Virus record (IMG/VR): IMGVR_UViG_3300047509_000227
Coordinates: 1 to 56,357 of that record
Source of the DNA: a virus
Lineage: Duplodnaviria; Caudoviricetes
Strand: one strand, 5' to 3'
DNA length: 56,357 nt
A program made the position numbers and the translations under genes. A model generated the notes under the pieces. The model worked only from the letters and a program-made list of their open reading frames with translations, made no database searches and was not told the origin of the DNA. Shown piece after piece: positions 591-55,447 of this stretch (the stretch's first letter is position 1; every line of letters begins with the position of its first letter).

Positions 591-736
591 TGATGACGCC
601 AACCGAGGCAGCCATCATAGTCCTGGCCCTCGAAGAGCAGATCAGTAAATCGTCACGGGAGCGAAAGCTGTTGGCGCAGGCGAGGGAGATTTTGTGGCAA
701 GAAGCCCTTCGGATTGTGACCGAGGCGAGAGAGTGA
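590..736 (+). CDS. Small hypothetical protein (48 aa, MMTPTEAAIIVLALEEQ...)
   Basis: Read by eye; TGATG coupling upstream and GTGA coupling downstream. Confidence 0.6.
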   Translation: MMTPTEAAIIVLALEEQISKSSRERKLLAQAREILWQEALRIVTEARE

Positions 737-969
737 CCACTCGCACCGAAGAACTCGGGCCGCTCTTGTATCAGGCCCTCGCGGAGCCCATCGGCCTCTT
801 GCTGCGCGTAAGTGAGCCGCAGAAGGTGATGCAGGCCCTACATCAGGTGAAGTATAAAGCAGGCGACCCATCGCTGATGATACTCCAAATCCGGATGCTC
901 GATCATCCCGAAGGCAACATCGCGATCACGAAGTCAGACAAAGACCTACCACTTCCAGGAGGCCTCTAA
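733..969 (+). CDS. Hypothetical protein
   Basis: GTG overlaps upstream stop; ends PLPGGL. Confidence 0.65.
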   Translation: MTTRTEELGPLLYQALAEPIGLLLRVSEPQKVMQALHQVKYKAGDPSLMILQIRMLDHPEGNIAITKSDKDLPLPGGL

Positions 970-1178: not shown

Positions 1179-1586
1179 ATGGGAGTCAAAATCATTTCAG
1201 GTGTGGGCAATTCTGTTCCCTTTGATAAGACAGATTGGACCGTACCAGTTGATGGGAAGAGTGGACTTGTTGTGGAGATAGTCGGCATCACGGACTTGGC
1301 CAAGATACTGGATGTAGTTGGTGGCGGTGGAGGTGGTGGTTACTCGGTTACGAATTTCAGGGCACCTGAGTCTCCGTCAAAGCCATTAAGTGGGCTCGAA
1401 TTACAAATCTCTCGACTTTGTACCTTTATCGAGGAAGATTTGAAAGATCGACGGCTTCAGCGACACCAGGAGATCGAACTTCGTATCATCATAGATAGAG
1501 AAGGGGGAGTTGGAGGTGCAGATGGAGGTGCAGGCCATTATGGCGGAGGCTCTGGTGGGAACATGGAAGTGAAAAGAGAGCTATGA
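1179..1586 (+). CDS. Hypothetical Gly-rich protein
   Basis: Good SD (GGAGAG); more AT-rich than its neighbours. Confidence 0.55.
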   Translation: MGVKIISGVGNSVPFDKTDWTVPVDGKSGLVVEIVGITDLAKILDVVGGGGGGGYSVTNFRAPESPSKPLSGLELQISRLCTFIEEDLKDRRLQRHQEIELRIIIDREGGVGGADGGAGHYGGGSGGNMEVKREL

Positions 1587-1849
1587 CGATGTCTGACCAA
1601 CAATTGCCTCAGTCGAACGTCCTGGCCGAGGCCGCGGCGACGAGCCTCTCGGAGATGCTTTCGACAGACCCCGAGAAGATCACGCCGGAGATCGAGCTGA
1701 GAATTATCCAAGCCCTGCGTGACCAGCGAGCCCGCTTTGCGGAGGCTGAGGCCGCAGGGAAGCCGGTGCCGAGGGTGGGGAAGGGGGAGAAAAAGACAGC
1801 TAAGACAATTCTCTCCTCGCTCGCAAACGTCGATGACCTCGGGCTCTGA
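1583..1849 (+). CDS. Hypothetical protein with C-terminal DDLGL
   Basis: ATGA coupling; ends ANVDDLGL. Confidence 0.7.
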   Translation: MTMSDQQLPQSNVLAEAAATSLSEMLSTDPEKITPEIELRIIQALRDQRARFAEAEAAGKPVPRVGKGEKKTAKTILSSLANVDDLGL

Positions 1850-3920: not shown

Positions 3921-4001
3921 GAGAGGGCAAGGAGGTCCGCCCGAAGGACCTCGCACCGTGCAGTTCAACCAACATTGCACTCAACTCAAGGATCACTCAA
4001 A

Positions 4002-4466
4002 ATGGCAGTTAATTTCAAGGCCCTCCTATCGAAGCCCGCGGGGCAGGCAGAACGTCCCAAGGTCCTACCAGCAGGGGACTATCCAGGTATTGTGGCGAAG
4101 TTCGAGATGGGCGAGTCGAGCCAGAAGAAGACGCCTTATGTGCGGTTTTTGGTCAATCTGACTGGCTGGCCCGACGACGTTCCGGAGGAGGATCGAGCCA
4201 TTACGAAGGAAGATGGGACACAAGTCCCGATCGATCTGTCGAAGAAGCAGCAGAAGGTTGATTTCTACCTCACAGAAGATGCACTCTTTCGTCTCGACGA
4301 CTTTATTAAGTCCGTGGGGGCGGAGACTGCGGGCAAGACCTACGAGGAGATTATTCCCGAGTGTGTCGGGGCGCACGTCATCCTCGCGCTGACGCAGGAG
4401 ACGAATGACAAGGGCGACGAGGTTACGATGTTCAATCGCGCTGGAAAGATGGTCGGCCAGACCTGA
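4002..4466 (+). CDS. Putative single-stranded DNA-binding protein (DUF669-like)
   Basis: LPAGDY...FYLTEDALFRL pattern; position downstream of Sak4-like gene. Confidence 0.6.
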   Translation: MAVNFKALLSKPAGQAERPKVLPAGDYPGIVAKFEMGESSQKKTPYVRFLVNLTGWPDDVPEEDRAITKEDGTQVPIDLSKKQQKVDFYLTEDALFRLDDFIKSVGAETAGKTYEEIIPECVGAHVILALTQETNDKGDEVTMFNRAGKMVGQT

Positions 4467-6012: not shown

Positions 6013-6288
6013 ATGACAAAGCTCTGTAAAGATTGCGTCCACTGTCACGGCGCAGCCGACTATGGACTTTTATGGCTACCGATTATTGGATGGTTGGTTT
6101 TACTCGTTCAAATCATCTCAGAATATTCAATTAGATTTGCGACGTGTACTCTCGAACACAACGCTCCTGATTCGAGCGAGCAATTCGTCACTGGGAGAGT
6201 CAATTTTGAGATGAGAGAGAAGTTCTGCACGGTTTGTCGCCAATATGGCGAGTGTGGACCTGAAGGCAAGAACTGGGAACGGAAGTGA
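6013..6288 (+). CDS. Cys-rich protein with one transmembrane helix
   Basis: CKDCVHC...hydrophobic run...CGPEGK. Confidence 0.6.
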   Translation: MTKLCKDCVHCHGAADYGLLWLPIIGWLVLLVQIISEYSIRFATCTLEHNAPDSSEQFVTGRVNFEMREKFCTVCRQYGECGPEGKNWERK

Positions 6289-7445: not shown

Positions 7446-7878
7446 GTGGTGGAAACCATCTCGTGAGCCAGATTTTGTAGTTGGAGGCAAAAGCAATCCA
7501 TATATGAAGAGATGGTATGTAATTCCTCGAAACAGGCTCTTTAACATCTATCTACATCAGATCATGAGGTCTGACGATGATCGTGCTCTTCACGATCACC
7601 CTTGGATCAATCTCTCGATAATCCTTGAAGGGGGATATGTTGAGCACACAATCGCTGACGGTGGTATTCACTATCAACATCCACTCAAAAAAGGTCAATG
7701 GCGCTGGCGCTGGCCAACCAAAGCACATCGGCTCGAAATCTCGACTCCTTGTTGGAGCCTGTTCATTACAGGCCCTGTTGTGAGAGCTTGGGGATTTCAC
7801 TGTCCTCAAGGCTGGCGTCACTTTAAGGACTTCGTCGCAGACAGTGATCGAGGTCTGATTGGAAGAGGTTGCGAGTGA
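7438..7878 (+). CDS. Cupin-fold protein
   Basis: HDHPW..SIILEGGYVE..AHRL..WSLFITGP. Confidence 0.75.
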   Translation: MSKWWKPSREPDFVVGGKSNPYMKRWYVIPRNRLFNIYLHQIMRSDDDRALHDHPWINLSIILEGGYVEHTIADGGIHYQHPLKKGQWRWRWPTKAHRLEISTPCWSLFITGPVVRAWGFHCPQGWRHFKDFVADSDRGLIGRGCE

Positions 7879-9431
7879 CCCTCGTTGCCACCCATTTGCT
7901 CAAACCTGGCCAGCTCTCCGACTCGGCCAACATGCAGGTCTACTGCGGCCTCGACTCGTGTGTTGCGCTCGAGGTCCACCAAGCAATCTCCGAAGAGCAC
8001 GGCCAGCCACCAACCTACGACTTCGAGCGCGCCCTGCAGGCACCATACTTAGACATGATGCTCCGAGGCTTCGCCGTTGACGAGATCTCTCGCCGCGCCG
8101 TCGCGACACAGTTGCACGAGCGCCTCGCCCACATTCGATCCCTCATCGACCGACTCGCGACTGTCGTCTGGGACAAACCCCTCAATCCACAATCGCCGAA
8201 GCAGTTCAAAGAGTTCTTCTACGGCGCGATGGGGATTAAGGAGATCATCTCGTACAAGAAGGGTGTGAGAAGAGTCTCGACGGATCGCGATGCCCTGGAT
8301 AAGATAGAAGAGTATCTTCATGCCCGACCGTTCGTCCTCGCCATCGGCCGAGCCAGAGATATCAAGAAAGAACTCGAGTTCTTCGAAGCCTCCATCCGGA
8401 ATGGAAGGATGTTCGCGGGGTACAACATCTCCGGCACGGTGACTGGTCGGCCCTCATCAAGCGACAACGCTTTTGGCGAGGGGCGAAATATGCAGAACAT
8501 TCCCGAACCGCTGCGGTATCCATTCATCGCTGATATTGGCAAGAAGCTCTGTGTGATTGATCTCGAACAGGCCGAGGCCAGAGACTTTGGCTTTCTCTGT
8601 GGCTGTCTTTTCGACAAGTGGGGCTTTCTGGATAAGTGCGAAGGTGGGGATCTGCATACCGCGAATGCTCGAGACGTGTGGCCAGAGCTGGCGTGGACGG
8701 GGCACAAACTTCAGGATCGGAAGATCGCCGACCAACTCTACTACCGGGACTTCTCCTACAGGTACATGGCCAAGAGACTGGGGCATCTCACAGACTACAT
8801 GGGCACGGCCTATACGAGTGCAAAGACGCTCAAGATTCCCCAACAGATGGCCGAAGACTTCCGCCAGCGCTACGCGACCGGGACGAACGCGGCCCATCCC
8901 GAGATTCCCCTCTACTGGGAGTGGTGCTCCAGGCAGATCCAGACGACCTACCAACTCACAACGCCCTTCGGCCGACAGAGACATTTCTTCGGCCGAGCCA
9001 ATAATGATGACGTTCTCCGTGAGGCGATTGCCTACGTTCCGCAATCGATGACGGCGGATCGCATGAGCTTGGGGATGTGGAGACTCTGGCGCTATGGACG
9101 AGGCCGAGTGGAGCTTCTCCATAACGGCTACGACTCGGTCACTTTCCAGTTCGATGATAGAGGGCCAAAGTATGAGAAAGAAATTGTCTCGTGGGCCTCG
9201 GCGCTGTGTGTTGTACCTCTCCGGGCACCGAATGGAAGGGACTTCGTCATCCCGACCGAGGCCAAGACAGGGTGGAACTGGGGCTCCGAGGTCACGCAAG
9301 ACGAGGTCAACGAGGCTCTCCGAAAGGGCAAAAAACCACCGCGGCTCAACACCGAGGGCCTGAGAAAATTCTCTCCCTCCGTGCCGGACATGCGCCAGAG
9401 GCAGACTGGCCTGCAAAGGGTAATGACATGA
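7875..9431 (+). CDS. polA: Family A DNA polymerase, C-terminal part (ExoIII + polymerase)
   Basis: YCGLD ExoIII; TVTGRPSS, NMQNIP, motif A DLEQAE, motif B RYMAKRLGHLTDY, motif C GYDSV. Confidence 0.9.
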   Translation: MTLVATHLLKPGQLSDSANMQVYCGLDSCVALEVHQAISEEHGQPPTYDFERALQAPYLDMMLRGFAVDEISRRAVATQLHERLAHIRSLIDRLATVVWDKPLNPQSPKQFKEFFYGAMGIKEIISYKKGVRRVSTDRDALDKIEEYLHARPFVLAIGRARDIKKELEFFEASIRNGRMFAGYNISGTVTGRPSSSDNAFGEGRNMQNIPEPLRYPFIADIGKKLCVIDLEQAEARDFGFLCGCLFDKWGFLDKCEGGDLHTANARDVWPELAWTGHKLQDRKIADQLYYRDFSYRYMAKRLGHLTDYMGTAYTSAKTLKIPQQMAEDFRQRYATGTNAAHPEIPLYWEWCSRQIQTTYQLTTPFGRQRHFFGRANNDDVLREAIAYVPQSMTADRMSLGMWRLWRYGRGRVELLHNGYDSVTFQFDDRGPKYEKEIVSWASALCVVPLRAPNGRDFVIPTEAKTGWNWGSEVTQDEVNEALRKGKKPPRLNTEGLRKFSPSVPDMRQRQTGLQRVMT

Positions 9432-24333: not shown

Positions 24334-24522
24334 CTACCTTCCATATCCGCGTAGGGGCGGAGTCGCCCCGCTTTTATCCTGATCCCGATACGACTTCGTT
24401 CTCTTCAGCGTCGCGATTGTATCCGCACTCACGGGCTGATCCGTATCAAGGCTCACATTTGCATCGAACTGAGCCTCAGCACTCTCCGGAGTGTCAGGAC
24501 TGAGGTCGCGTTTGACAGCCAC
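24334..24522 (-). CDS. Small late protein ending RGYGR
   Basis: 62 aa; preceded by GGAAGG. Confidence 0.65.
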   Translation of the reverse strand: MAVKRDLSPDTPESAEAQFDANVSLDTDQPVSADTIATLKRTKSYRDQDKSGATPPLRGYGR

Positions 24523-24524
24523 AA

Positions 24525-24674
24525 CTACCTTCCGTAGCCCTTCGGCATCTGCTGCTGTTGCTTGACCTTGTCGAGTTCCTTCTGGATCTCATCCACGGTC
24601 AGGGGTTTGCCTGCCGTAGCAGACTCGTCCCCGACTTTCGGCGGAGAGGGCTGGAGAATGTCAGTCGGACCCAT
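24525..24674 (-). CDS. Small late protein ending KGYGR (49 aa)
   Basis: Read by eye: MGPTDILQPSPPKVGDESATAGKPLTVDEIQKELDKVKQQQQMPKGYGR. Confidence 0.65.
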   Translation of the reverse strand: MGPTDILQPSPPKVGDESATAGKPLTVDEIQKELDKVKQQQQMPKGYGR

Positions 24675-24678
24675 CTCT

Positions 24679-24846
24679 TTACCTTCCATAGCCTCTGCCC
24701 TCGGCCTTTGCCTTGGGCTTGGGCTTCTTGTCGGCCTCTACAAAGTCCTTCGCCACAGCCTGCGGTATGCCCGCTTTGCGGGCGAACTCAGGGTCGTGGT
24801 CCGCAGCCTCCATGAAGCGGTGCTGCTTCGCAGAGACGCTCGGCAT
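24679..24846 (-). CDS. Small late protein ending RGYGR (55 aa)
   Basis: Read by eye: MPSVSAKQHRFMEAADHDPEFARKAGIPQAVAKDFVEADKKPKPKAKAEGRGYGR. Confidence 0.75.
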   Translation of the reverse strand: MPSVSAKQHRFMEAADHDPEFARKAGIPQAVAKDFVEADKKPKPKAKAEGRGYGR

Positions 24847-26788: not shown

Positions 26789-27304
26789 TTATGCCCCGTC
26801 GACAGGCAACATTGGCGAAAACTCTCCAAACATTTCGGAGGCCGTTTTCTCATAAAACTTGACAGCTTCGGCCAATGTGACGAAGTGTCGTTGTAGTCGA
26901 TTGGAACCCTTTCGGCTGATTTGGACCTTCCACTTCAGCTTCTGATTGTCCCAGCAAATTCCACGATAACCAGTCGAATTGTCGCTTCTGATTTTTGAGT
27001 TCATCAGGTTCTGTGAGTGACTGACTTCCCGGAGATTAATCAGGCGATTATCCAACGTATTGCCGTTGATATGGTCAAGTTCACCATCAGTTGCGACTCC
27101 ATGCACATAGAGCCAAGCAAGACGATGCGCCAAGTATCTGTCGTCATTCAGTCGGATAATGAGATAACCTTTGTTGCTTACAGTTCCGACTGAATATCTG
27201 CGACCTTTCTTGGATTTTTTCCATGCAAATTTGCCACTCACATTATCGTATGTGAGTTCGGAGCGAACCAATTCAGCTGACAGATCCTTGTCCTTATAGG
27301 ACAT
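26789..27304 (-). mobile_element. Free-standing HNH homing endonuclease (HNH + AP2-like domain)
   Basis: AHRLAW..LDHING..DNRLINLR..N; NSTGYRGI; AT-rich. Confidence 0.88.
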
Positions 27305-28101
27305 TACGCTGACTTCGCCAACTGTGCCTCGCGGCGTTTCATCCACTCGGTCGTCGTGAGCCGATCTGCGCGCTCTGTATCAGTGGGGTCGATTGCAGTA
27401 TGCTGCGCGCCCTTCGACCCTACAGGCGTAATGGGCTTCGGCAGACCATCTTCGCCCTCGGCGCCTTGCATGGCCATCTTGGCGATCTCAATCGTCCGAC
27501 TCTCTGGGTCGAGCGCCATTATCCTCATCGCCTCGGCCCGATCGCTGCCGAGAGCGTGGATGACCTTCGCGGCCTTTCCACTCTTCAGCGCTGCTGAGAC
27601 GATGCCCCAGTAGGCGCCCTCGGAAGCCTGATCCCCAGGCGTGATGACTGAGCGTAGGTCGCCGAGCTTCGCGTCGAAGTCCGAGAACTGCAACCTCCCC
27701 GCCTCAACAGCCGCATTACACTGACGGTTGAACTCGATCGCCGCGGTCTGCTGTTGGGCGAGCGTCGGGGCAAGGCGCTCTGCCTCGGTCCGAACTCGCT
27801 GTGCGATTTCTTCTTCCGAGGGCGCCGCAGCAGCAGCTGCTGCCTTCGGCTGGAGCGAGGCGATTTGTGCCTCCAACTCCGCGATTCGCGCCTCGCGCGA
27901 AGTCAGCACATCGTTTCTCTCATGTAACCTGGCCGAGAGTTGTCCCAGTCTTTTATCTCTCCAGTCCTCTGGAGCTGCAGGTGCTGCCGATGGCGCGGGG
28001 GGTGTGGCAGCGGCTGCAGGCGGTTGCGGATCATCAACAACAGCCCCGGCTGGCGGTGTTGCCGCTGGTGCTGGTTCGATCCGTTCGCCTGTGCCTGACA
28101 T
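27304..28101 (-). CDS. Scaffolding protein
   Basis: Coiled coil; PKPITPVG; C-terminal TTTEWMKRR; upstream of coat gene. Confidence 0.8.
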   Translation of the reverse strand: MSGTGERIEPAPAATPPAGAVVDDPQPPAAAATPPAPSAAPAAPEDWRDKRLGQLSARLHERNDVLTSREARIAELEAQIASLQPKAAAAAAAPSEEEIAQRVRTEAERLAPTLAQQQTAAIEFNRQCNAAVEAGRLQFSDFDAKLGDLRSVITPGDQASEGAYWGIVSAALKSGKAAKVIHALGSDRAEAMRIMALDPESRTIEIAKMAMQGAEGEDGLPKPITPVGSKGAQHTAIDPTDTERADRLTTTEWMKRREAQLAKSA

Positions 28102-33652: not shown

Positions 33653-34383
33653 GGCGAGAATTGCACCTGAGCCAGCGTACTGACGCGCAGCGTCAGAGTA
33701 AATCTCGTAATCGTCGTCGCGGAGTTGCAGTTTACTCTCCACCAAGTCTTCGCCGCAAGCGCCGTATTCCACCCCGTCAGGGGATTTGCCCCTGTTGGAC
33801 TCTGATCCCCGCCACTCGCGCTCTCATTCCCGGCCAAAATCACTGGAAATGCCGCCGCAACAATACTGTTCGCATTCGTCGGCGGAGAGTCATCCGCATA
33901 CTGCTGCAGCCAGAGATCGACCTCGAGCGCGCCATTCTGATCCGCCTGCAGCACCCACCCAGTGATTGTCCCATCGAACGTAGTGTATAAGTCGCCAAGA
34001 ACGCCCGGGGCAATCGGCAGCCCTGCGTTGTCGAACCTGAACACAACGTCTCGATCGTACAAAAAACAGGCGTCGATCGTTCCATTCTGGAGTTGCGTCA
34101 GCAGCGGAATCTCACCCGTCTCGGTGTCCCACAGCACCGCACCAGTCGCGTCCTTCACAACCTGCCGGTAGAGTCCCGAGCCCCACATTATGCACCTGCC
34201 AGAGGCGTCGAGCGTGAGAGGGTTCGCATTCGGAGCTGCCCCAGCAGGATCGAGCCACGTCTGCGCCAGAGTGTTCGTCCCGGGCAAGTACGTCGTGACC
34301 GTACCCCCAGCCAGCACCAGTCCATTGTTGTCAAAGAACTGCTGCTGCCCGTTCGGGAGCAGAATCAGGCTCGGCGTCGTCAC
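33649..34383 (-). CDS. Tailspike virion-attachment-domain protein
   Basis: QQFFDNNG..LAGG..Y.PGT..NPLTLDASGR; GTG start 34383. Confidence 0.75.
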   Translation of the reverse strand: MTTPSLILLPNGQQQFFDNNGLVLAGGTVTTYLPGTNTLAQTWLDPAGAAPNANPLTLDASGRCIMWGSGLYRQVVKDATGAVLWDTETGEIPLLTQLQNGTIDACFLYDRDVVFRFDNAGLPIAPGVLGDLYTTFDGTITGWVLQADQNGALEVDLWLQQYADDSPPTNANSIVAAAFPVILAGNESASGGDQSPTGANPLTGWNTALAAKTWWRVNCNSATTITRFTLTLRVSTLAQVQFSP

Positions 34384-34541
34384 CGGAGGCCGCCCAGCAG
34401 CCAAACAATCAAGAGAATCACCAGCAGGACGCCAAGGATTCCCCCTACGCCATTCGGCCCATAGGACTGGTAGCCCCACCACCCTCCACCACCAAGCAGC
34501 ACAATCAGGATGACTACCACGAGAAGTGTTCGATTTGTCAT
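34380..34541 (-). CDS. Small two-helix membrane protein (DUF3309-like)
   Basis: Read by eye: MTNRTLLVVVILIVLLGGGGWWGYQSYGPNGVGGILGVLLVILLIVWLLGGLR. Confidence 0.7.
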   Translation of the reverse strand: MTNRTLLVVVILIVLLGGGGWWGYQSYGPNGVGGILGVLLVILLIVWLLGGLR

Positions 34542-34544
34542 GTC

Positions 34545-34889
34545 TTATCTCCCTTCATACATTTGTTCAGGCTTCGCCCCAATACCACCAATCGCAGCGT
34601 AGTTCGTACGGGAGAAGTAGAACGAGATCACAATCCCGGCGATGAGATTGACAAAACTCACCCCCGTCATCTGCGCTACGGTCGGGTCCCTGTTCGTGAC
34701 GAGGCAGATCAGCGTAGAGCCTCCATCGACGATCATCGTCAGCGCAATCACCCCAATCGCCACAGCGGCCTGCGTATATTCCCAGATCAGGTTGATCTTC
34801 CGCTGCCCGAGCGTCGTCAGATCTTCCTGATGCGTCGTCGTGGGAGGCACAGACGGCTGGTGCGATCCTGAGTCTTCAGCCAAGCTCAT
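34545..34889 (-). CDS. Holin-like membrane protein
   Basis: Two TM helices; VISFYFSR. Confidence 0.55.
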   Translation of the reverse strand: MSLAEDSGSHQPSVPPTTTHQEDLTTLGQRKINLIWEYTQAAVAIGVIALTMIVDGGSTLICLVTNRDPTVAQMTGVSFVNLIAGIVISFYFSRTNYAAIGGIGAKPEQMYEGR

Positions 34890-34905
34890 TGTAGTTCCCG
34901 GAAGG

Positions 34906-35178
34906 TTAGCGCGATGCGCCCGAAGGTTCGCTCTTCAGATAATCCACAGCGTCGCCCAGCGAAGCCCGACCTTCGACAGCACGCACTCGTGGCGGCTGAA
35001 TATCTGGGGGGTTCTTCGAGAAAATCTCTTTCCTCAAGTATTTGCCTGTGCCTTGGTTGTTCTCACAGACCTCGGTCACGTAGCCATTCTCGATCTCCCG
35101 GCACGAGACCGTGTGACTGACGCCATGCCCCGGGGGCCGCGCAGCAATCGCCGCTGTGTCGTTCAAACGCTTCGCCAT
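34906..35178 (-). CDS. Hypothetical protein
   Basis: SD AGGAGA; REIENGY. Confidence 0.65.
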   Translation of the reverse strand: MAKRLNDTAAIAARPPGHGVSHTVSCREIENGYVTEVCENNQGTGKYLRKEIFSKNPPDIQPPRVRAVEGRASLGDAVDYLKSEPSGASR

Positions 35179-35199
35179 CTTCGTCTCCTATTACTTACC

Positions 35200-35241
35200 A
35201 AAAAGGGACTGTGTGAGGCCAAACAAGGGTCTCACACAGTC
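35200..35241 (-). terminator. Probable rho-independent terminator
   Basis: 14-bp stem GACTGTGTGAGACC/GGCCTCACACAGTC followed by CCTTTTT on the - strand. Confidence 0.65.
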
Positions 35242-35253
35242 GATGTCGGCAGG

Positions 35254-35628
35254 TTAGCGCCCGAACTTCTCCCGGTGGGAGGGCGAGTGCTTCTCCGCAT
35301 GATGCCGATGGGCCTCGGTCTTCAGCCCATGAAGGGGCTCGTGCCGGACGTGATGATCTGTCCCATGGTGAGGCCCGTGGTCGTGATACTTGATCGGGTG
35401 CTGCCTCTCGAGTTCCTTCGTGGCACCATGAAGGGGGTTCCGGTCGGTCGGCTGACCCTCTTGTGCCCCACGCATGTCAGCTCGACGTTCGTCGCCAACA
35501 CCAGCACGTCCCGGCGGCGTCTTCGGAGGCTGCCCCCCTCTCGGGCCACTCTCCTTCACTCCCTCCATCCCAGGGTCCATCTTGTTCCCCTTGCTTTCCT
35601 TGCCAGTAAGTCTCTCCATCTCACTCAC
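35254..35628 (-). CDS. Disordered His-rich protein ending KFGR
   Basis: HDHGPHHGTDHHVRH...HRHH. Confidence 0.7.
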   Translation of the reverse strand: MSEMERLTGKESKGNKMDPGMEGVKESGPRGGQPPKTPPGRAGVGDERRADMRGAQEGQPTDRNPLHGATKELERQHPIKYHDHGPHHGTDHHVRHEPLHGLKTEAHRHHAEKHSPSHREKFGR

Positions 35629-35670
35629 TCCTGCTGTTGCCCCTATGGGGCGCTGATGTTGCGCTGACCG

Positions 35671-35922
35671 TCAGCGCCCGTAACCGGACCTCTGCGGCCC
35701 GAGATGTTCCCGCGAAGCGGGCTTGCCCAGGATGCGATTCGCTTTCGCATCAATCTTCTGCTCACTCGCTGCCGAGAGGTTGCCCTTTGCGACCTGCTGC
35801 GTCGCTCTAGCCTTCGCGTTCGCGGCGTGAGACTTATCAGGCATCGGATACCCCCGGGACGCGGGGAGGCCAAACTCCCTCGCCGGGATCTCTCTGCGCT
35901 CACTCGTCGTCAGCTTCGCCAT
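35671..35922 (-). CDS. Small basic late protein ending SGYGR
   Basis: FGLP..R.YPMPDKSHAANAKAR. Confidence 0.8.
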   Translation of the reverse strand: MAKLTTSERREIPAREFGLPASRGYPMPDKSHAANAKARATQQVAKGNLSAASEQKIDAKANRILGKPASREHLGPQRSGYGR

Positions 35923-36452
35923 TATAGTCCTCCCGGTACCGCCATCAGCGCCGACACGACTCTCGGGCGTGGCCCCGGCAGGGGCTCTCGGATGGTAGAT
36001 TTGCCCAGCCAGTGAAACGTTGGAATCCGTGACAGTGACTGTTGTGCAAACACCAGCGCGGGCTGCAGGTCCCCATAAACCGCTCTGACCTGCGGCACCA
36101 AGTGTTTACAAACCACCAGCCCAACGGCACGTTTCCCTGTCGCCTTCTCGACCACCGGCAGATACAGGAGGCGAAGCTTGGCCTCGGCCTCCTCGACCCA
36201 CGTATGCTTAATCTCCGCCACCACGACGAAGTCGCCCTGATGCCAGACCAGATCGGGCTGACAAAAGCTCTCGCCCCGGCTGTCGCGGAAGGTATACCAC
36301 GGCCCATGGAGCGCCCACGGCATATGCCTCGCGACGAGCCTCTCATATCGAATGCCGAGGGCCTTCACTCCTCTCGGTCGTCCGTTTGAAATGCACGAGG
36401 GCTTGCTTGCCAGTTGCCTTGCTGTCACGAGTGGCTGTTGCACCTGCCTCAT
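35922..36452 (-). CDS. PD-(D/E)XK nuclease
   Basis: YE...QPDLV...AEIKHT. Confidence 0.7.
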   Translation of the reverse strand: MRQVQQPLVTARQLASKPSCISNGRPRGVKALGIRYERLVARHMPWALHGPWYTFRDSRGESFCQPDLVWHQGDFVVVAEIKHTWVEEAEAKLRLLYLPVVEKATGKRAVGLVVCKHLVPQVRAVYGDLQPALVFAQQSLSRIPTFHWLGKSTIREPLPGPRPRVVSALMAVPGGL

Positions 36453-40617: not shown

Positions 40618-41067
40618 TTAGGTCGAGCCTGGCGTGACGCCCTTGATGGTGGCAACTGCGGCGGTTGCTTTCGCAATCGCCTCATTGATGGATTGCAAAT
40701 CCGGGTGCATCCCAGCGTCGATCGCTGCCTGCGCCGCCACAGCCGCGTCGTTGGCCTTATTCACCCAACTCACGCCCGTGTCGTAGGCGATTTTTGCCTC
40801 CGCCGCACTCGAGCCCTTCAGCAGCCCAACGCTCGCGGCGAACTTCATCCCGTCGCCCGCTGTGTGCACAGCACCCGCAGCGAATGTAATTCCCACCTTG
40901 GCCTTATTGAGGGCCGTCTGCGCGGCACTTGTTACAGAAGATGGTGCAGCCGGAAGTATCTGTGTCTGCCCAAGCGCCCCGCTCAGGGCAGTACACCCCG
41001 CCAGCGGCCCAAACGCTAGCGCGAGTGCCAATGCTGTACATTTCAGAAGTCGCATTTTATTCTCCAT
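40618..41067 (-). CDS. Lipoprotein (spanin-like)
   Basis: Lipobox LAGC after a hydrophobic helix. Confidence 0.7.
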   Translation of the reverse strand: MENKMRLLKCTALALALAFGPLAGCTALSGALGQTQILPAAPSSVTSAAQTALNKAKVGITFAAGAVHTAGDGMKFAASVGLLKGSSAAEAKIAYDTGVSWVNKANDAAVAAQAAIDAGMHPDLQSINEAIAKATAAVATIKGVTPGST

Positions 41068-41491
41068 CCTTCAGCGCCAGCGCCACGCCAGCCTCGAGAT
41101 CGGCCTCGGCGAAGTGCCATCCGCCACACTCATGAGTGGAGATCGCCTTCGCCAACTTTTCCAGAACGATCGGATTGTGCATCTCGAGCGTCGCGTCCGC
41201 CCCCACACCGAGATCTCTGGCAACGTCCTCAACGTAGGCCGCGGTGTTGTTCTCACTCGATGGTGCCCAGCGACTGATAATGCCTCGGACGGTGTTCAGA
41301 CCATGCAAATGGCTGTAGTTCAGCAATACTGTGGCGAGCGCCCTGAAGCCCCACTTCGGCGAGACAAAAACGGCGAAGCGATGCTCGCTGAGTTGGGCCG
41401 GAGTCATCGCCCCGCGGGGCCGTAGGCCCTGCCAGTGGTCGCCCGCGTCGAGATTGCCTGGGTTCGCGTTCCGAAGGGCTCGAACTACCAT
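41057..41491 (-). CDS. Endolysin, lysozyme-like fold
   Basis: RNANPGNL..FAVF..GFRA..ISRWAPSSENNT..Y..HE. Confidence 0.8.
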   Translation of the reverse strand: MVVRALRNANPGNLDAGDHWQGLRPRGAMTPAQLSEHRFAVFVSPKWGFRALATVLLNYSHLHGLNTVRGIISRWAPSSENNTAAYVEDVARDLGVGADATLEMHNPIVLEKLAKAISTHECGGWHFAEADLEAGVALALKDGE

Positions 41492-41880
41492 CTCAGCCTA
41501 TCTATGTCCTTGCCTCGTAGGCGCGCCGTTTGGCGCGGAGCATGGGGGTGCGGTCAGTCCCAGCGAGGGGGCGTGTCGAGGCGCACAAACTGACCACACC
41601 CGCACCATGCGGCTGCAGTGGCGCACATTATGAGGAGTGGCGCAAGGAGGGCTGGGGCGGCTGCGGCGATGGCGTGGGCCGGGGACGCTTCGCACAGCTA
41701 CTGCTTGTGGGCAAGGAAGAGAAGGAAGAGAGAGGTGGCCAGGGTGTTTTGGCAAAAAATGGGAAGGAGAGTTGAGACGTACCCAAAAAGAGATCCTTTC
41801 AGGCCAGTCCCCCCGGCCTGCCCAGGATGGTCGCAGTCGGTCCCGGGACCCGGGCGGTTCCACTGGTCATAGCGCGGGAA

Positions 41881-41896
41881 TGTTTCACGTGAAACA
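41881..41896. promoter_or_regulatory. parS: Perfect consensus parS site
   Basis: TGTTTCACGTGAAACA, intergenic. Confidence 0.85.
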
Positions 41897-41922
41897 AAAC
41901 AGGCGCCCTTGCGAGGCGCCTG
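41896..41922 (-). terminator. Terminator of 41946..42554, abutting parS
   Basis: CAGGCGCCTC-GCAA-GGGCGCCTG then TTTTGTTT. Confidence 0.7.
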
Positions 41923-41945
41923 CTCTGCATTCATTTGACCTGACG

Positions 41946-42554
41946 TTAGAGGCCGAGTTGATCCGCCGAAACCGGACCAGCCTTGGCCAACTTCTCGGCC
42001 TCGGCCTTTGCCTTTTCGGCCTTCGCAGCCAAGTCCTTCACACGCTTCTCGGCGTCCTTACGCAGCCGGTCGCCGTGCGTCTTGGTGACGTTCTCGCGCA
42101 TCTGTTCCAACGTGCGCGTCTGGCCATTCGCGAATTGAACGACCTCGTCCTCGGTCGGCAGTTTGCGACCCTTCGGGAACTTAATGCCGTTGCCCGCGAG
42201 GGTGTTCGCAATGTGCGCGTCCACCATCGAGTTGAACTCGCGTTCAATTGGGTCAAGGCGCGGACCGCGTCCCGAACCGATCTCGCCCTCATAAATCGCG
42301 GCAAGGGCTTTCGCGACCAGTTCGTCCTTCTTGGCCTCGATTTCCGCCTCGGTCAACGCGACCGCCTCGGTTCCGTTCTTCTTGGCCTCGGCCTCGCGTG
42401 CCGCAGTCGTGCTCTGCTTCCACGCTGTAACCTTCGACGCCTGCTCATTACCCAAGAAGTGGGTCACGCCTTTGGCCAGAAGACTTTCGATGGACGGCTG
42501 GGGAACCATCGAAAAGTCGATGGCATTGCCAGCGTATTCGTATGTGAACTGCAT
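41946..42554 (-). CDS. Lys/Glu-rich protein ending SADQLGL, with its own promoter and terminator
   Basis: SD CGGAG; start MQFTYEY. Confidence 0.8.
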   Translation of the reverse strand: MQFTYEYAGNAIDFSMVPQPSIESLLAKGVTHFLGNEQASKVTAWKQSTTAAREAEAKKNGTEAVALTEAEIEAKKDELVAKALAAIYEGEIGSGRGPRLDPIEREFNSMVDAHIANTLAGNGIKFPKGRKLPTEDEVVQFANGQTRTLEQMRENVTKTHGDRLRKDAEKRVKDLAAKAEKAKAEAEKLAKAGPVSADQLGL

Positions 42555-42601
42555 GGTGATGACTCCGTTGTGGAACGACCCAATGCCGTTCCGATCCAAC
42601 A

Positions 42602-42630
42602 AATGTACGCGCATCAACGGCTGATTGCAA
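42602..42630 (-). promoter_or_regulatory. Sigma70-type promoter with an operator-like site in the spacer
   Basis: TTGCAA-17-TACATT; ATCAACGGCTGAT at 42613-42625. Confidence 0.55.
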
Positions 42631-42860
42631 CGGTCCCGGTCAATTTTTGTTGGCCAGTCCAATCACGAAATGTTACCGGCCAACGGGCGGCGGATGTTAA
42701 CCATGCCGAGTTGGGGCCGATCCGGCCCAGTCGCAAGCGCCCACCTGAACCCTTCGACTACCATCTGCCCCAACGCCCGAGGTCACTCGATAGAGTTGCT
42801 AGTGGTAGTGGTATGGAATCTCGAAATCTGTCGGGAGTCGGTAACGAATGGGACGGGCCA

Positions 42861-43040
42861 AATGTCGGGGGCCAGTTGACCGCAGAGCTGCGGATGTCGG
42901 CCCCCATATGTCGGTCCCCATATGTTGCGACCGGGACGGCACCCCTCCACCACCCACTCCGCCACACTGGATGCCGACCATGGGGCAGGCGTGCCAGTAG
43001 TCCAGTTCTTTTATTATATAAATTTTATTTTTTTTTTAAG
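42861..43040. other. Candidate origin or packaging region: iteron-like repeats plus AT tract
   Basis: ATGTCGGYCCCCAT tandem repeat; 31-nt pure A/T run at 43009-43039. Confidence 0.45.
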
Positions 43041-43253
43041 ACTGCCCCCTGACGGCACCCCCCTGCCCTACCATCCGCCCTACTGAGCCGAGAGTGTCAC
43101 CGGAGGGCACGCCGTCCACGGTCACAAATGGACCCCCATTGCTGGAGCCCCACAATCACGGCATATAATCGCCCCAACGTCACCCGGCCCACCATCAACC
43201 ATCTATACCTACCGATAGCCAGCCACCAAAGACAGAGGAGCCTGCCTTCGGAA

Positions 43254-43445
43254 ATGACTCAGCCACTCATTCTGCATCATCGACCGAGGACGCCCTGGAT
43301 CGAGCAAATTCCCGAGCCGCGTTACTGCATGGCCTGCACATGCGGCTTTACCGTCAAAAGCATCTGGGCCTCTGTAGTCAGGATACAAATAGAGCAACAC
43401 CTTAGAGAAGGAAATTTCGGATGCCAATCTCCCAAGAGCGAATGA
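43254..43445 (+). CDS. Small zinc-finger-like protein
   Basis: HHRP..CTCG..QH. Confidence 0.5.
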   Translation: MTQPLILHHRPRTPWIEQIPEPRYCMACTCGFTVKSIWASVVRIQIEQHLREGNFGCQSPKSE

Positions 43446-44050
43446 TCGCCCTGACGAACGCGGGACTCGACTACCAGCAGGCTCTGCACTCTGTCCTCGA
43501 CTTCGTCAACGATCAAACCAGCCGGATCAACTCCGGGGCCATTACTTCAGCCGAGGCCATGATGGCTATCTCTACACTCGCGGCAAGCGAGTCGGGACTT
43601 CTCAACAACAAGGCAGACTCTCAGACCACTCTTGCCCTCGAAAGCCGCCATTGGTTGAAGGCTGCAAAGCGGAATGAGCGTGAACGGGGCAGACTCGCGC
43701 GCAAGCGCCTCGCTGATGGCAAACCGAAGGGGATTTTCGACACAGCCCCAAAATCACTCTCACACACCGCCATGCGGAGAGATGAGTCGATATTGCAAGC
43801 CACAGGGAATGTCCGCCCGAGAAATGACTACCAACAGCGTAGCTTGCAAGCAGGGGGCAAGCCCCCCGAACTGATCGAAGCGGCGAGTCGGCTCTCGCCC
43901 GAGGCCATTGCAGAGATCGACCGACTCGTTGCCGCGAGTCCCCCAAGTGGGGCGACCATTCCACCACTCACTGGCGACATGGCCGAGGATATTGCGGCCG
44001 ACCTCGATGATCCGACCATTCCACAAGCCCCAGACATCGGCGACGACTGA
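43421..44050 (+). CDS. Hypothetical early protein
   Basis: 209 aa; basic RERGRLARKR; acidic tail. Confidence 0.65.
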   Translation: MPISQERMIALTNAGLDYQQALHSVLDFVNDQTSRINSGAITSAEAMMAISTLAASESGLLNNKADSQTTLALESRHWLKAAKRNERERGRLARKRLADGKPKGIFDTAPKSLSHTAMRRDESILQATGNVRPRNDYQQRSLQAGGKPPELIEAASRLSPEAIAEIDRLVAASPPSGATIPPLTGDMAEDIAADLDDPTIPQAPDIGDD

Positions 44051-44123
44051 TCGGGCTTCGCCCGCTCGAAATATAAAGTGATCGAGAAATGTGAGAAAAG
44101 TGGGCAGATTTGGTGCGAGGGCA

Positions 44124-44152
44124 TTGACACGGCCATCGCCATATGCCACAAT
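44124..44152 (+). promoter_or_regulatory. Sigma70-type early promoter
   Basis: TTGACA-17-CACAAT. Confidence 0.6.
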
Positions 44153-44253
44153 GCGCCATGACTCAGTCTCTCCCATTTCAGGCGCTGACTTTCTCGCCTG
44201 TCCTCGCACAGCCCGATCTGGCACCCTTCCCCATGCCACCGAGGGCAACAACA

Positions 44254-44400
44254 ATGAGGCATCGGCAGATTTATCGCCTGCTCGTTCGGCAAGGCCATTC
44301 GGCTCAGAAAGCAGCAGAGATCGTACTCGATGCTGTGAGGAAAGATGTGTGGGCGAGAAGATGGATCGGGCTTGTGTTCAAGAGTAGGAGATTTCAATGA
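44254..44400 (+). CDS. Small hypothetical protein
   Basis: MRHRQIYRLL...; ATGA coupled downstream. Confidence 0.6.
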   Translation: MRHRQIYRLLVRQGHSAQKAAEIVLDAVRKDVWARRWIGLVFKSRRFQ

Positions 44401-44452
44401 AACGATGTGATCAGTGTGGGAGTGCGAAGCGCTCCAGACTGGGGGCACGACG

Positions 44453-44749
44453 ATGAGCCGAGGCAATACGCTTACAGCAAATACCACAACCAACACCATT
44501 ATGCGGTCGAAAGCATTCGCGGCAGGCGTTGAAGACGCCCTCCTAGGTCTGAAATACGATGACTCGTGGGACGGTGACTGGTACTATGAGTACGGTCGGT
44601 TGTGGCAGGTCACGACGAAGGCAACTCGGGTGTATGTCAGCAAGGGCCAAGTCGATGGCCTTCAGCAGATGTCATTCAACCGCTGCTATGGGAGAGAGAT
44701 CCCGGTTGCGCTCGTGCACCTGCCATCGGCAGACGAACTGGGACTGTAG
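44453..44749 (+). CDS. Early protein ending SADELGL
   Basis: AFAAGVEDA..WYYEYGR. Confidence 0.75.
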   Translation: MSRGNTLTANTTTNTIMRSKAFAAGVEDALLGLKYDDSWDGDWYYEYGRLWQVTTKATRVYVSKGQVDGLQQMSFNRCYGREIPVALVHLPSADELGL

Positions 44750-44757
44750 GAGTGCAA

Positions 44758-44949
44758 ATGATGAGTAAACGCTGTGACCAGTGTGGGAGGGAATTTGTCC
44801 CGCCAGCAGACGCCCCGCACAAACGCTTCTGTCAAACTGGCTGTCGCCAGACCTGGCATACGCTGCGGCGGCAGGCGGCGATGCAGCTACTCCGGGCAAC
44901 GACAGGCGACAAGGCCGCCCAAAAGTCTGCAACGGAGTTGGGCCTATGA
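44758..44949 (+). CDS. Zinc-finger early protein ending SATELGL
   Basis: CDQCG..KRFCQTGCR; SD AGGAG. Confidence 0.75.
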   Translation: MMSKRCDQCGREFVPPADAPHKRFCQTGCRQTWHTLRRQAAMQLLRATTGDKAAQKSATELGL

Positions 44950-45173
44950 TGGGCGAGCGCATAAATGCCTACACGCAGGCCTCGCCAGATGGTCGGCCGG
45001 GAGTCGTCGTGGACATCGAGGGCATGATGGTCGATCTCGTGACCTTTGTAAAGGCTATGGCCATCAACTCGGTCGTCCAGGAGGACCTGTGTAAGGCGAG
45101 GTTCTTTCAGGCCCTCGAAGAGGTCTGGCAAAACGTGCAGGTCGCCGTGAGCGACGACTCGACGAAGCAATAG
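44946..45173 (+). CDS. Hypothetical protein
   Basis: ATGA coupling. Confidence 0.6.
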   Translation: MMGERINAYTQASPDGRPGVVVDIEGMMVDLVTFVKAMAINSVVQEDLCKARFFQALEEVWQNVQVAVSDDSTKQ

Positions 45174-45200
45174 CGCGCAACGCGCACAACACTTTAGGAG

Positions 45201-45305
45201 ATGACCGTGGCAGATACGATTATTACTGCGTTGGCTTGGCCCGCAGCCGTTGCCTTCGGCATCTGGCTTGCCGTTGGCTTCTTTCTTCACGTCATCTCTC
45301 ACTGA
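45201..45305 (+). CDS. Small membrane peptide
   Basis: SD AGGAG; IITALAWPAAVAFGIWLAVGFFL. Confidence 0.5.
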   Translation: MTVADTIITALAWPAAVAFGIWLAVGFFLHVISH

Positions 45306-45770
45306 GTGAGGGCAGCTATGACCGGCGTACCACAGGTGATCGTGACGCTCGATCCGCAGGGCAAACTTGTGGCGGAGCTTCCGGGAATACAGGCAACACG
45401 GCGGCAGGTCCATATGCGCTCGGGCGAGGCCGAACAGACCCTCTTGCGAATTTTGACCAACCAGTTGACCTCGGCGGTCGAGATTGGCCTCGATGGTGCG
45501 CCGACGCAGAGGCAGGTCGATCACTGGGAGAGGCATCAGACCTGGCCGAAGGAGGGCTGCAGGTGGTGCATCGCCGAAGGGCGCATTGCCACAGGCATCT
45601 CTTCGAGGCGACGGAATGAATTTCTCGTCGCGGGGGGTGATGTGACGGTGCGGAGGCTGAAGCCGAAGGAGAGTGGGCTGCCGAAGAAGGCGAAGGCCAA
45701 GAGGGTTCCGACAATTGTAGTGGTTCAGCATGGCCGGAAGCCGCGCAGCGCAGAAGAGTTGGGGCTCTGA
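45306..45770 (+). CDS. Early protein ending SAEELGL
   Basis: H..RH..CRWC; basic tail. Confidence 0.75.
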   Translation: MRAAMTGVPQVIVTLDPQGKLVAELPGIQATRRQVHMRSGEAEQTLLRILTNQLTSAVEIGLDGAPTQRQVDHWERHQTWPKEGCRWCIAEGRIATGISSRRRNEFLVAGGDVTVRRLKPKESGLPKKAKAKRVPTIVVVQHGRKPRSAEELGL

Positions 45771-45774
45771 GACG

Positions 45775-46365
45775 ATGGTGAGCAAGATTGAGTCTGCCGA
45801 GATGGTTGCCCGAGGGGAAGTGATGGAAATCTTCTCTCACGAGTCCCTTGGACATTTCAATGTCTCGGAGACGAGAAAATTGATCGCGACCTATCCAGAG
45901 CTGTTTCCACAGAGGGCAGCGAGATTTGCCGAGACGAGAATGGTGGATGGGATTCAGGTTGATGCCTGGGACTACATCTTCAAGTCGAGAGACATCTGCC
46001 AAGAGCGCGCGGCGAGCCTGACGGGAGAGCAGTTGATCGACCCGGCGATTGTGGTCGAGGTGCCGGAGGGAGTGAATGGGAACTTCGACAGGTCGCATCT
46101 CATTATCGACGGCATACACAGGGTCTTCAGAAGGAAGCAACTTGGTAAGCCGGAATACTATTTTTATCTGGTGCCGATGGCGGTTGTGCCGATGGTGCCA
46201 CACTGGGCAGTCGAAGTCTCGGACGCCCTCCGGCCGGACTTAGCGTGGGGCAAGTTCGATTTCGTCGGAGGTGTCTTTGTTGATAGAGAGACTGGAGAGA
46301 AGGTTGGAGACATTCCGGGGGTCTGGGAACACGGTCAACGAGTCGATCAACAAGGCAAGAGGTGA
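45775..46365 (+). CDS. ParB/Srx-like domain protein
   Basis: DPAIVV...LIIDGIHR. Confidence 0.65.
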   Translation: MVSKIESAEMVARGEVMEIFSHESLGHFNVSETRKLIATYPELFPQRAARFAETRMVDGIQVDAWDYIFKSRDICQERAASLTGEQLIDPAIVVEVPEGVNGNFDRSHLIIDGIHRVFRRKQLGKPEYYFYLVPMAVVPMVPHWAVEVSDALRPDLAWGKFDFVGGVFVDRETGEKVGDIPGVWEHGQRVDQQGKR

Positions 46366-46479
46366 TATTTGCGGCCCGAGCATGAGAAGTACGTGCTCGG
46401 CCCGCAGCGATCATTCGACGCTGCAAACCAACGGGCAGTAGCGAGTTAGAAGCTCGCCGACCCAGAAGGAGACACTACG

Positions 46480-47568
46480 ATGAGTGAACTGATGCAAGCC
46501 CACCAGCAATGGGCCTCCCGACCCGCAGATGAGCGTTTTACCTCTCTGATCGACATGCACAACCATTTCGTGGCGGCCAAGCTGGCCAGCCGAGAGACTG
46601 TCGTAGCGTCGAGACGACTTCATGCGCTCCCAGCCGAAGATAATAAGGGGCTGCTGCTGCAGGGTCCCTCCGGTGCAACGGCATCGCCGACGAACTGGGC
46701 CTTTGGGCAGCTCTGTGGGCTGGCGGAAGCTCCGGCGGGGTATATGCGGACTCTGCCGAGTCCGATCGTCGCGGACTGCGTCAACTACGGCCTGCAGTTT
46801 AAGCGCAATGTCGAGGATGTTGGGGTGCTATTGCAGCGAAATGGCTCGACCGAAGCCAGAGCGCTGACCGGCCCACGCTATGGTCGAGTGTGGAATGCGG
46901 AAATCTGCGAGGGCCTGGTGGAGAGGTTCGGGAATGGGACTACCGACAGCGACTGGCGAGTGCCGGGAGAGTTTGGCAAGGCCATCACGGTGGATAAGGA
47001 CAACACCACGCTCTTCGCGGGGGATCGAGACATGTTTGTCTTCCTCGCCGACGAGACGAACAGAGTTATCCTCCCGGAGAGACGGGGTGGGAACGAAGGC
47101 AGTCTTGCGAGAGGGTTCTTTGTCTGGAACAGCGAGGTTGGATCGGCTACGCTGGGTATCTCGACGTTTCTCTTCGACTATGCGTGCTGTAATCGCATCG
47201 TGTGGGGAGCGAAACAATACAAGCAGGTGAAAATCCGCCACACGCCAGGAGCGCCCGTTCGGTGGTTGGACGAGGTGCAACCTGCGCTGCAGGCCATGCA
47301 CACGAGCGGGACGCACAATATCGTTCTGGCGATTGAGAACGCTCGGAAAGCGAGGATCGACGATGTCGAGGATTTTCTCGCGAAGCGCTTCGGGAAGCGA
47401 ATGCCAGCGATGTTGCAAGATGTGAGCATGGAAGAAGAGGGCCATCCGGTGGAGACGCTGTGGGACGCGGCCACGGCCGTCACGGCCTATGCGAAGCGGA
47501 TCAAGTGGCAAGACGATCGAGTCGCGCTTGAGACGAAGGCGGGAGAGCTTCTCGATCTCGCAGCCTGA
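46480..47568 (+). CDS. DUF932-like protein
   Basis: QWASRPADERF; FAGDRDMFVFL; GFFVWNSEVG; CCNRIVWG. Confidence 0.8.
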   Translation: MSELMQAHQQWASRPADERFTSLIDMHNHFVAAKLASRETVVASRRLHALPAEDNKGLLLQGPSGATASPTNWAFGQLCGLAEAPAGYMRTLPSPIVADCVNYGLQFKRNVEDVGVLLQRNGSTEARALTGPRYGRVWNAEICEGLVERFGNGTTDSDWRVPGEFGKAITVDKDNTTLFAGDRDMFVFLADETNRVILPERRGGNEGSLARGFFVWNSEVGSATLGISTFLFDYACCNRIVWGAKQYKQVKIRHTPGAPVRWLDEVQPALQAMHTSGTHNIVLAIENARKARIDDVEDFLAKRFGKRMPAMLQDVSMEEEGHPVETLWDAATAVTAYAKRIKWQDDRVALETKAGELLDLAA

Positions 47569-54893: not shown

Positions 54894-55073
54894 ATGCCGC
54901 AGATGTCATCAATGGGTGAGGACGAACTCGAGAACTCTCGGGAGGAGTTTAAGAAATTCCTCGTGACGACTGGTGAGGCCGAGGCATATATGAAGATCTT
55001 CGAGACGGTTTTTATCTCAGGCTACATGGCGGGAGTTAAGCGTGGCCTGTCGTGGGCCAAGGAGCATCTCTGA
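54894..55073 (+). CDS. Small hypothetical protein (59 aa)
   Basis: Read by eye; SD GGGAGA. Confidence 0.55.
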   Translation: MPQMSSMGEDELENSREEFKKFLVTTGEAEAYMKIFETVFISGYMAGVKRGLSWAKEHL

Positions 55074-55447
55074 TGCCGGTGCCCTTTAGGGACCCATCTC
55101 GTAGACTCATGGGCGAGAGACCCTGTTGGATGAAGTGCTTCGTCGTTCTGCCTGATGTCGTGGTCGAGATCGCGAACGAACCTCAGAGGTTCGTGGCCCG
55201 AGTCATGGCCCCGAGGGGGCCACAGAGTGCCCACTGGGTCGAGACCCCTGCCCTGAGCTTAACAGATGTGGCGAAGCTGTTGATCGACTGGCACGACGGG
55301 CCGGAAGAGGCGCTCTGGCGCTGGTGGAAAGAGATAGAGCCGAACTCTGCGGTCTGGAGCGAGGGACGACGGGAGGGTCGGCAGGTCGTGACGAAGGTGC
55401 TGGTTGCGGCGGGGGATGTGGATGTGGAAGACCTTGATGGGCTCTGA
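55073..55447 (+). CDS. Hypothetical protein ending EDLDGL
   Basis: TGATG coupling. Confidence 0.65.
   Translation: MPVPFRDPSRRLMGERPCWMKCFVVLPDVVVEIANEPQRFVARVMAPRGPQSAHWVETPALSLTDVAKLLIDWHDGPEEALWRWWKEIEPNSAVWSEGRREGRQVVTKVLVAAGDVDVEDLDGL

Follow-up and report, generated by a model that had tools for sequence, protein, structure and literature searches.

A portable C-terminal tail shared by unrelated small proteins in a clade of uncultured phages, with the host β sliding clamp as a tentative reader

Results

Proteins that carry the shared tail

The 56,357-base stretch of DNA analysed here, referred to at its full length as the window (IMG/VR record IMGVR_UViG_3300047509_000227), is a complete viral record with direct terminal repeats, and five of its open reading frames (ORFs) close with the common ending [S/N]-x-x-[D/E/Q]-L-G-L-stop, hereafter the tag. 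A shared tag of this kind had been proposed from the letters of the window alone, and every terminus listed in that sequence-only reading was indeed found at its stop codon; i.e., SADQLGL at 41946 (minus strand), SADELGL at 44749, SATELGL at 44949, SAEELGL at 45770, NVDDLGL at 1849, and two looser ends, VEDLDGL at 55447 and RALEDL at 590. The proteins concerned are as follows (positions are those of the window).

41946..42554, minus strand: protein A, 202 amino acids (start at 42554 judged from 29 homologs), ends in the tag
44453..44749, plus strand: protein B, 98 amino acids from ATG 44453, ends in the tag
44758..44949, plus strand: protein C, 63 amino acids from ATG 44758, N-terminal Cys-x2-Cys zinc-ribbon-like motif, ends in the tag
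45318..45770, plus strand: protein D, 150 amino acids from ATG 45318, ends in the tag
1583..1849, plus strand: protein E, 88 amino acids, ends NVDDLGL
55052..55447, plus strand: protein F, 131 amino acids; VEDLDGL is a degenerate tag, one residue longer than the standard form
694..969, plus strand: ORF of a family with tagged orthologs; the end of the window copy is divergent and was not counted as tagged
96-590: ORF with a RALEDL end, not a member of the tag set

Protein A is the product of the first gene of a leftward arm that runs into the lysis and structural genes, and it consists of a helical body and a long Lys/Ala-rich helix followed by the tag, which occupies its last 7 residues (codons 41949-41969). 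For protein B, a database gene call at 44501 would give a shorter product of 82 amino acids. Upstream of its gene lies a σ70-like site (44124-44152, plus strand) composed of TTGACA, a 17-nucleotide spacer, and a TG-extended CACAAT, the number of such sites in the region not being above shuffle expectation. The gene model of protein C was corrected, its start being ATG 44758 and not a position within the preceding gene. In protein D, residues 1-90 fold into a domain in which Gly, Pro, Gln, Trp, His, and two Cys residues are invariant, followed by a basic, low-confidence tail (residues 91-150) that ends in the tag. Protein E is encoded directly upstream of genes for a PD-(D/E)XK exonuclease and a Sak4-like ATPase, and protein F directly downstream of a UvrD-like helicase gene.

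No Pfam or PHROG family was found for any tagged window protein, and nothing meaningful came from searching PDB sequences with A1 and a pair of large early proteins. The tagged carriers are presumed to be early from the position of their genes. That no core virion protein is tagged, as stated in the sequence-only reading, holds for the window ORF list.

The tail is enriched and selected as a peptide

Ends of the form [LIM]-G-[LI] occur on 5/95 strand-aware window ORFs vs 0.13 expected from the internal frequency of the tripeptide (25 in 18,210 positions), and when the last 30 residues of each protein were shuffled, none of 5000 shuffles reached 5 tagged ends. Three relatives were found among viral contigs via a helicase search, with helicases 45-49% identical to that of the window; two of these are complete 61-kb genomes, for which the coat proteins are 85% and 76% identical to the window coat. 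Their auto-called genes are tagged in 4/103, 4/110, and 4/24 cases, and the relative present as a 10.6-kb fragment has a fifth tagged ORF, seen only in the six-frame list. Motif statistics in related phages vs shuffled termini had been set beforehand as a test of the tag; with the window and the three relatives pooled, 17 tagged ends were observed, whereas shuffles gave 0.59 on average and 5 at most.

Codon usage was compared at 21 tagged stops from 7 contigs. There, Gly is encoded by GGC (6), GGA (7), GGG (7), or GGT (1), five different Leu codons are in use, and the stop itself is TAA (6), TAG (7), or TGA (8). Moreover, no ATG or GTG is present near 9 of these 21 stops, within a span from 4 nucleotides before the end of the stop to 30 nucleotides after. 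The varied Gly, Leu, and stop codons and the downstream context therefore place the constraint on the peptide and exclude repeated DNA, Shine-Dalgarno effects, and overlap artefacts as the cause, in agreement with what had been argued from a handful of codons.

By sequence, the bodies of the tagged proteins are unrelated, another point on which the earlier proposal was borne out. BLASTP among the six bodies minus their last 8 residues gave a best E of 0.29, and in hhalign comparisons of families A, D, and E the alignment was limited to the terminal 7-9 residues.

Conservation, gain, and concerted drift

Across orthologs of families A, D, E, and F the tail is kept while the preceding linker diverges. 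Among database homologs, hydrophobic-G/D-hydrophobic ends are found on 68/75 members of family D and 67/81 of family E, but on only 14/29 of family A. The family D homologs end x-G-x in 60 cases, x-D-x in 8, and otherwise in 7, with 2 of the latter carrying the tag plus 1-2 extra residues. In family E, 67 proteins end [LIMVC]-[GD]-[LIFV] and 2 end acid-L-F, with Met at -3 in 18/81 and D at -2 in 6/81. Family A is more heterogeneous, comprising 13 hydrophobic-G-[LIF] ends, 1 hydrophobic-D-L end, 6 that stop one residue short (hydrophobic-G), and 9 that end otherwise; a metagenome scan for the short-ended subclade returned only a 1.3-kb contig.

A position table built from 53 unique D tails has S/N/T at -7 (39 tails), A/V/I/L/M at -6 (45), E or K at -5 (41), D/E at -4 (50), L/I/M at -3, G (45) or D (8) at -2, and L (50), F (2), or I (1) at -1. 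More broadly, -5 is E/D/S/A/T/K/Q across the 21 tags, and -6 is A or V in the window tails. The motif can be written in order as hydrophobic, S/N, small or hydrophobic, E/K, D/E, L/I/M, G (or D), and L (or I/F), with a free carboxyl end. The 25 residues that precede the D tag are basic (median net charge +4.5). At the DNA level, a degenerate pattern of the tail matched one ORF, in a 153-kb viral contig, and was uninformative. A clade of uncultured phages is defined by this conserved tail, which is not described in the literature searched, from which most subscription journals fall outside coverage.

The tag has also been gained on proteins B and C, whose homologs are without it: the protein C orthologs in three related contigs (tblastn) end without the tag, and six weak homolog clusters of protein B (E 5e-5 to 9e-4), similar in length, likewise have no tag. 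One relative carries the tag on an SprT-like protease (PF10263, E 2.8e-14), and the 694-969 family ends in -LGL in one relative and D-L-Q-L in another. Comparisons of B with a tagged protein of a relative, and of F with the product encoded downstream of the helicase in the same relative, were not significant, and neither pair was counted as a family.

Drift of the tail is concerted within genomes. The D, E, and F orthologs of one relative share the end -LGI, which is found on 1/75 D homologs and 1/81 E homologs, both of which are proteins of that same genome. In a second relative, found via family D, the orthologs of these three proteins finish in -[I/L]DL. That unrelated proteins should shift the same tail position in one genome is what a shared reader predicts. 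This covariation is not strict, in that one subclade pairs D ending -LDL with E ending -MGL or -LGL, on contigs reported at the same lengths. With -LGI and -LDL on its orthologs, the VEDLDGL end at 55447 was retained as a degenerate member, though not as the standard form. RALEDL, also put forward as a looser member, was dropped; its orthologs in two relatives end differently.

Structural models of two carriers

The AlphaFold2 model of protein A has a mean predicted local distance difference test score (pLDDT) of 86, falling to 47-66 over the last ~11 residues and to 47 in the last block. For protein D, residues 1-90 are folded in the model, and the tail has block means of 47-67. As modelled, the tag thus sits at the end of flexible, exposed, low-confidence segments in both A and D. 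Foldseek gave no PDB match to the protein A model at E <= 0.001. For the protein D model the best VIA Z score was 5.2, and three-strand-plus-helix matches of the AP2-like (Z 4.6) and lambda-integrase-arm-like (Z 3.4) types were obtained, all within the range that the tool calls common; no usable match was found for protein D in the ESM Atlas.

Genome context and other terminal sequences

Plus-strand genes run from ~42.7 kb through the window end to 12.6 kb, and minus-strand genes from 42.55 kb to 12.67 kb. The structural genes include those for a P22-type coat, a portal, and a large terminase. Encoded in the replication/recombination arm are a UvrD-like helicase, PD-(D/E)XK exonuclease, Sak4-like ATPase, ParB-methyltransferase fusion, DUF3987 primase, and family-A DNA polymerase, the last of these spread over two ORFs. 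Among the cultured phages of INPHARED, megablast gave no DNA-level match to 41000-47000 and tblastn gave none to proteins A, E, and D. Coat identity between the window and any cultured phage is at most 57%. Phage JG054, found via the helicase, lacks such tails and is not closely related. Viral-contig scans with D alone or A alone yielded no match, as did two scans of species-representative genomes for host inference via family D.

The family-A DNA polymerase is split (6285-9431, plus strand) into 6285-7445, with a UDG-superfamily match, and 7869-9431 (DNA_pol_A); between the halves lies a 146-amino-acid ORF (7438-7878) matching a PHROG labelled cysteine dioxygenase (E 3.8e-52). An HNH endonuclease gene (26789-27346, minus strand; PHROG 99, E 1e-54) is located between the coat gene and its upstream neighbour, and its guanine-plus-cytosine content is below that of its neighbours at every codon position, for which reason it is probably a mobile insertion.

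Several other terminal sequences were noted in passing. A 209-amino-acid ORF (43421-44050, plus strand), kept in three relatives, has a very acidic end with D-I-G-D-D as its last residues, and was not counted as tagged. Three adjacent small ORFs of 62, 54, and 55 amino acids (24334-24846, minus strand) all end GYGR, with mutual identity of 21-29% and four other invariant columns, and one of them matches a PHROG common to the N-termini of virion structural proteins; the GYGR ending, which the sequence-only reading had paired with the tag as two stage-specific address codes, may reflect tandem duplication or common descent and not a tag on unrelated proteins, since the three proteins align weakly with each other. 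In a distant relative found via family A (L020, 10336-16298), four ORFs have R-S-T-E/K in their last 3-10 residues, which may be another tail code. The DDDIPF tip known from the protein that binds single-stranded DNA (SSB) also ends the superfamily II helicase of phage JG054 (L016/L017, record 34383-36161), and in another distant relative (L018, 1223-1513) a 96-amino-acid ORF ends D-D-E-I-P-F, an SSB-like tip on a phage protein.

Discussion

In our proposal, the tail is a short linear motif of ~9 residues, portable and C-terminal, by which a varying set of small accessory proteins docks onto a single common reader (probability roughly 0.85). Direct observation covers the motif itself as well as its selection, portability, and concerted drift; from these we infer a single reader for all tails: a common reader is supported because the ends are enriched, selection acts on the peptide, the bodies are unrelated, the tail is conserved, it was gained on B and C, and it drifts in concert across families. 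A flexible, often basic linker would carry the tail, which would in turn plug each carrier onto the common reader. The sequence-only reading had envisaged a docking peptide for one hub; its core stands, given the selected, portable, and common-reader behaviour of the tail, whereas none of the partners it named (RNA polymerase, clamp, protease, or scaffold) was confirmed.

As to the identity of that reader, our best guess, put forward tentatively, is the host β sliding clamp, on account of the resemblance of the tail to the C-terminal half of the clamp-binding motif. The clamp-binding peptide of DNA polymerase IV is RQLVLGL, in which LGL is reported to be exchangeable for LF without effect; the LF moiety is described as binding the clamp alone, with Gln aiding binding without being necessary, and the flanks of clamp-binding motifs as mostly negative, or as a free C-terminus (PMC11139829). 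In phage Mu, MuC is reported to have QHDLF and QPDLF, and Mor to keep only the DLF of the motif, with a Leu-to-Ala change abolishing Mor function (PMC12867686). Like the QL[SD]LF and QLxLxL motifs and these Pol IV and Mu peptides, the tag is a short peptide on a disordered end, often the extreme C-terminus, in which L-F or L-x-L comes after an acidic or Ser residue; in the clamp system, too, unrelated DNA-handling proteins share one pocket (PMC11139829, PMC12867686). Position by position, the acidic -4 residue (50/53 unique D tails) is comparable to the [SD] of QL[SD]LF, -3 is L/M/I, -2 (G or D) corresponds to the free position of QLxLxL, and -1 is L or F, so that the tags have the Ser/Asp-like position 3 and then L-F or L-x-L that mark clamp motifs; two E homologs even replace acid-L-G-L with acid-L-F. 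The natural range of the tag (acid, L/M/I, G/D, L/F, occasional acid-L-F) matches the clamp half motif. Moreover, the carriers look DNA-related, with zinc-ribbon-like proteins, genes that flank exonuclease, Sak4-like, and helicase genes, and the SprT-like protease of a relative among them. Were the clamp the reader, the last four residues (acid-L-G-L) would occupy hydrophobic subsite I of the clamp cleft, like the end of DNA polymerase IV, and the phage would tether its small DNA-handling proteins to clamps that remain on replicating DNA, perhaps displacing host clamp clients.

A number of observations weigh against the clamp. At motif positions 1-2, the pair Gln-hydrophobic is found in 0/185 tails (29 A, 75 D, and 81 E), none of which ends Q-hydrophobic-x-[LIM]-x-[LIF] or Q-hydrophobic-[SDE]-[LIM]-F; the -5 residue is E, K, D, or S instead of hydrophobic, such that the aliphatic position 2 of clamp motifs is absent. 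The tags differ further in having residues of their own at -7 and -6, with the conserved S/N and small hydrophobic residue lying outside any clamp motif in the literature consulted, and in their strong preference for Gly at -2. The clamp pocket is described as strongly conserved (PMC11139829), and genome-specific drift of the tail fits an evolving reader better for that reason. Also awkward for clamp docking is the subclade of family A in which the last residue is missing and hydrophobic-G forms the end (6/29), and one such short-ended A is on a contig reported as 61,933 bp, the same length as that of a D homolog keeping -GL. In addition, the tag is absent from the polymerase, helicase, and primase of the phage itself, and clamp binding by the tail is guessed from analogy. 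A co-model of two E. coli DnaN chains with D residues 91-150 (58-row alignment, no controls) gave no answer (score 0.00) and speaks neither for nor against the clamp.

Nearly as likely as the clamp, though doubtful in its own right, is a reader encoded by the phage within its replication/recombination module (the Sak4-like ATPase, exonuclease, family-A DNA polymerase, UvrD-like helicase, or primase), toward which the tail would act like an SSB C-terminal tip, carriers and reader together making up a self-contained plug-and-socket set. Phage T4 offers a parallel for a tail shared by phage proteins of different function, as gp43, gp33, and gp55 carry C-terminal tails that dock onto the gp45 clamp. 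The window phage differs in its motif and in having no recognisable clamp gene by Pfam or PHROG; indeed, neither resource revealed a clamp, a PDZ-like domain, or any other recognisable peptide-binding domain among the phage proteins. In T4, gp45 also serves as activator of late transcription (PMC2988020). With respect to the SSB tip, the acid-acid-hydrophobic-small-hydrophobic-COOH order of the tail matches DDDIPF position for position, each at the free C-terminus of a flexible segment, and such tips can be read by recombination and replication proteins: in HK620, the last six SSB residues (NDYPPF) are reported to be needed for Sak4 binding and stimulation (PMC5928155). A Sak4-like gene is present in the window (2988-3920); the gene after it (3975-4466) has no acidic tail, and its identity as an SSB is guessed from position alone. 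Proteins E and F flank genes of this module, which is kept in every tag-bearing relative checked, and genome-specific concerted drift on three unrelated families would fit a co-evolving phage socket. Against this, the covariation is only partial, the tags end L-G-L without the Pro-Phe typical of SSB, and the carriers match no Pfam or PHROG family, SSB families included. The arrangement is also reversed, in that SSB presents one tail to many readers, whereas here many carriers imply one reader.

A proteolytic role is less likely still. The tail would then be a C-terminal degron that times removal of its carriers, or a mimic of the (L/I/V)-G-(F/L) loops with which Clp ATPases occupy ClpP pockets (PMC8745299), and would plug those pockets; most tails match the tripeptide, as LGL (all five window tails), IGL, or LGF, the tag is strictly C-terminal, and the carriers are small accessory proteins in a presumed early arm. 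However, the tripeptide is broken by the acid-L-F ends and by D in place of G, which occurs in 8/75 D homologs, in 6/81 E homologs, and in each of the three tagged proteins from one relative. Met at -3 falls outside it, and neither the S/N at -7 nor the conservation of acidic residues is explained. The natural tripeptide, furthermore, is described on loops of hexameric AAA+ unfoldases and as binding weakly in single copy (PMC8745299), whereas the tag closes proteins of 63-202 amino acids without Pfam or PHROG match. The remaining likelihood falls to another host hub. At the far end of the scale, a tail with no function, arising by chance, from a nucleotide-level artefact (Shine-Dalgarno sequence or overlap with the next start), or as the remnant of an ancestral domain, could point to the several tagged window stops that overlap or abut the next start codon; it is refuted, as far as sequence analysis can do so, by the shuffle counts, by the varied codons and stops and the 9/21 tagged stops without a nearby start, by the confinement of alignment between families to the last 7-9 residues, and by retention of the tail in most of the 185 homologs. 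A docking motif with a common reader, possibly the host β clamp, is thus the interpretation that we favour.

Nearly all carriers are orphans without database annotation, for which a shared and transferable tail is a rare handle on function; a single peptide pull-down could place at least 5 unknown proteins per phage in one pathway. If the clamp is the reader, a Gln-less half motif would be used by many proteins at once, widening the rules for predicting clamp clients and adding to the recent finding of host clamp use by phage Mu. It is also conceivable, if somewhat speculative, that the tail is a Gln-less, phage-specific address code with a phage socket that has no known counterpart, by means of which this podophage clade would assemble interchangeable accessory proteins on its replication/recombination machinery, ~9 appended residues sufficing to recruit new clients. 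A phage-encoded reader would constitute a new modular docking system, for which, given whole contigs for the 185 homologs, drift of the tail between genomes would provide a computational route to the socket.

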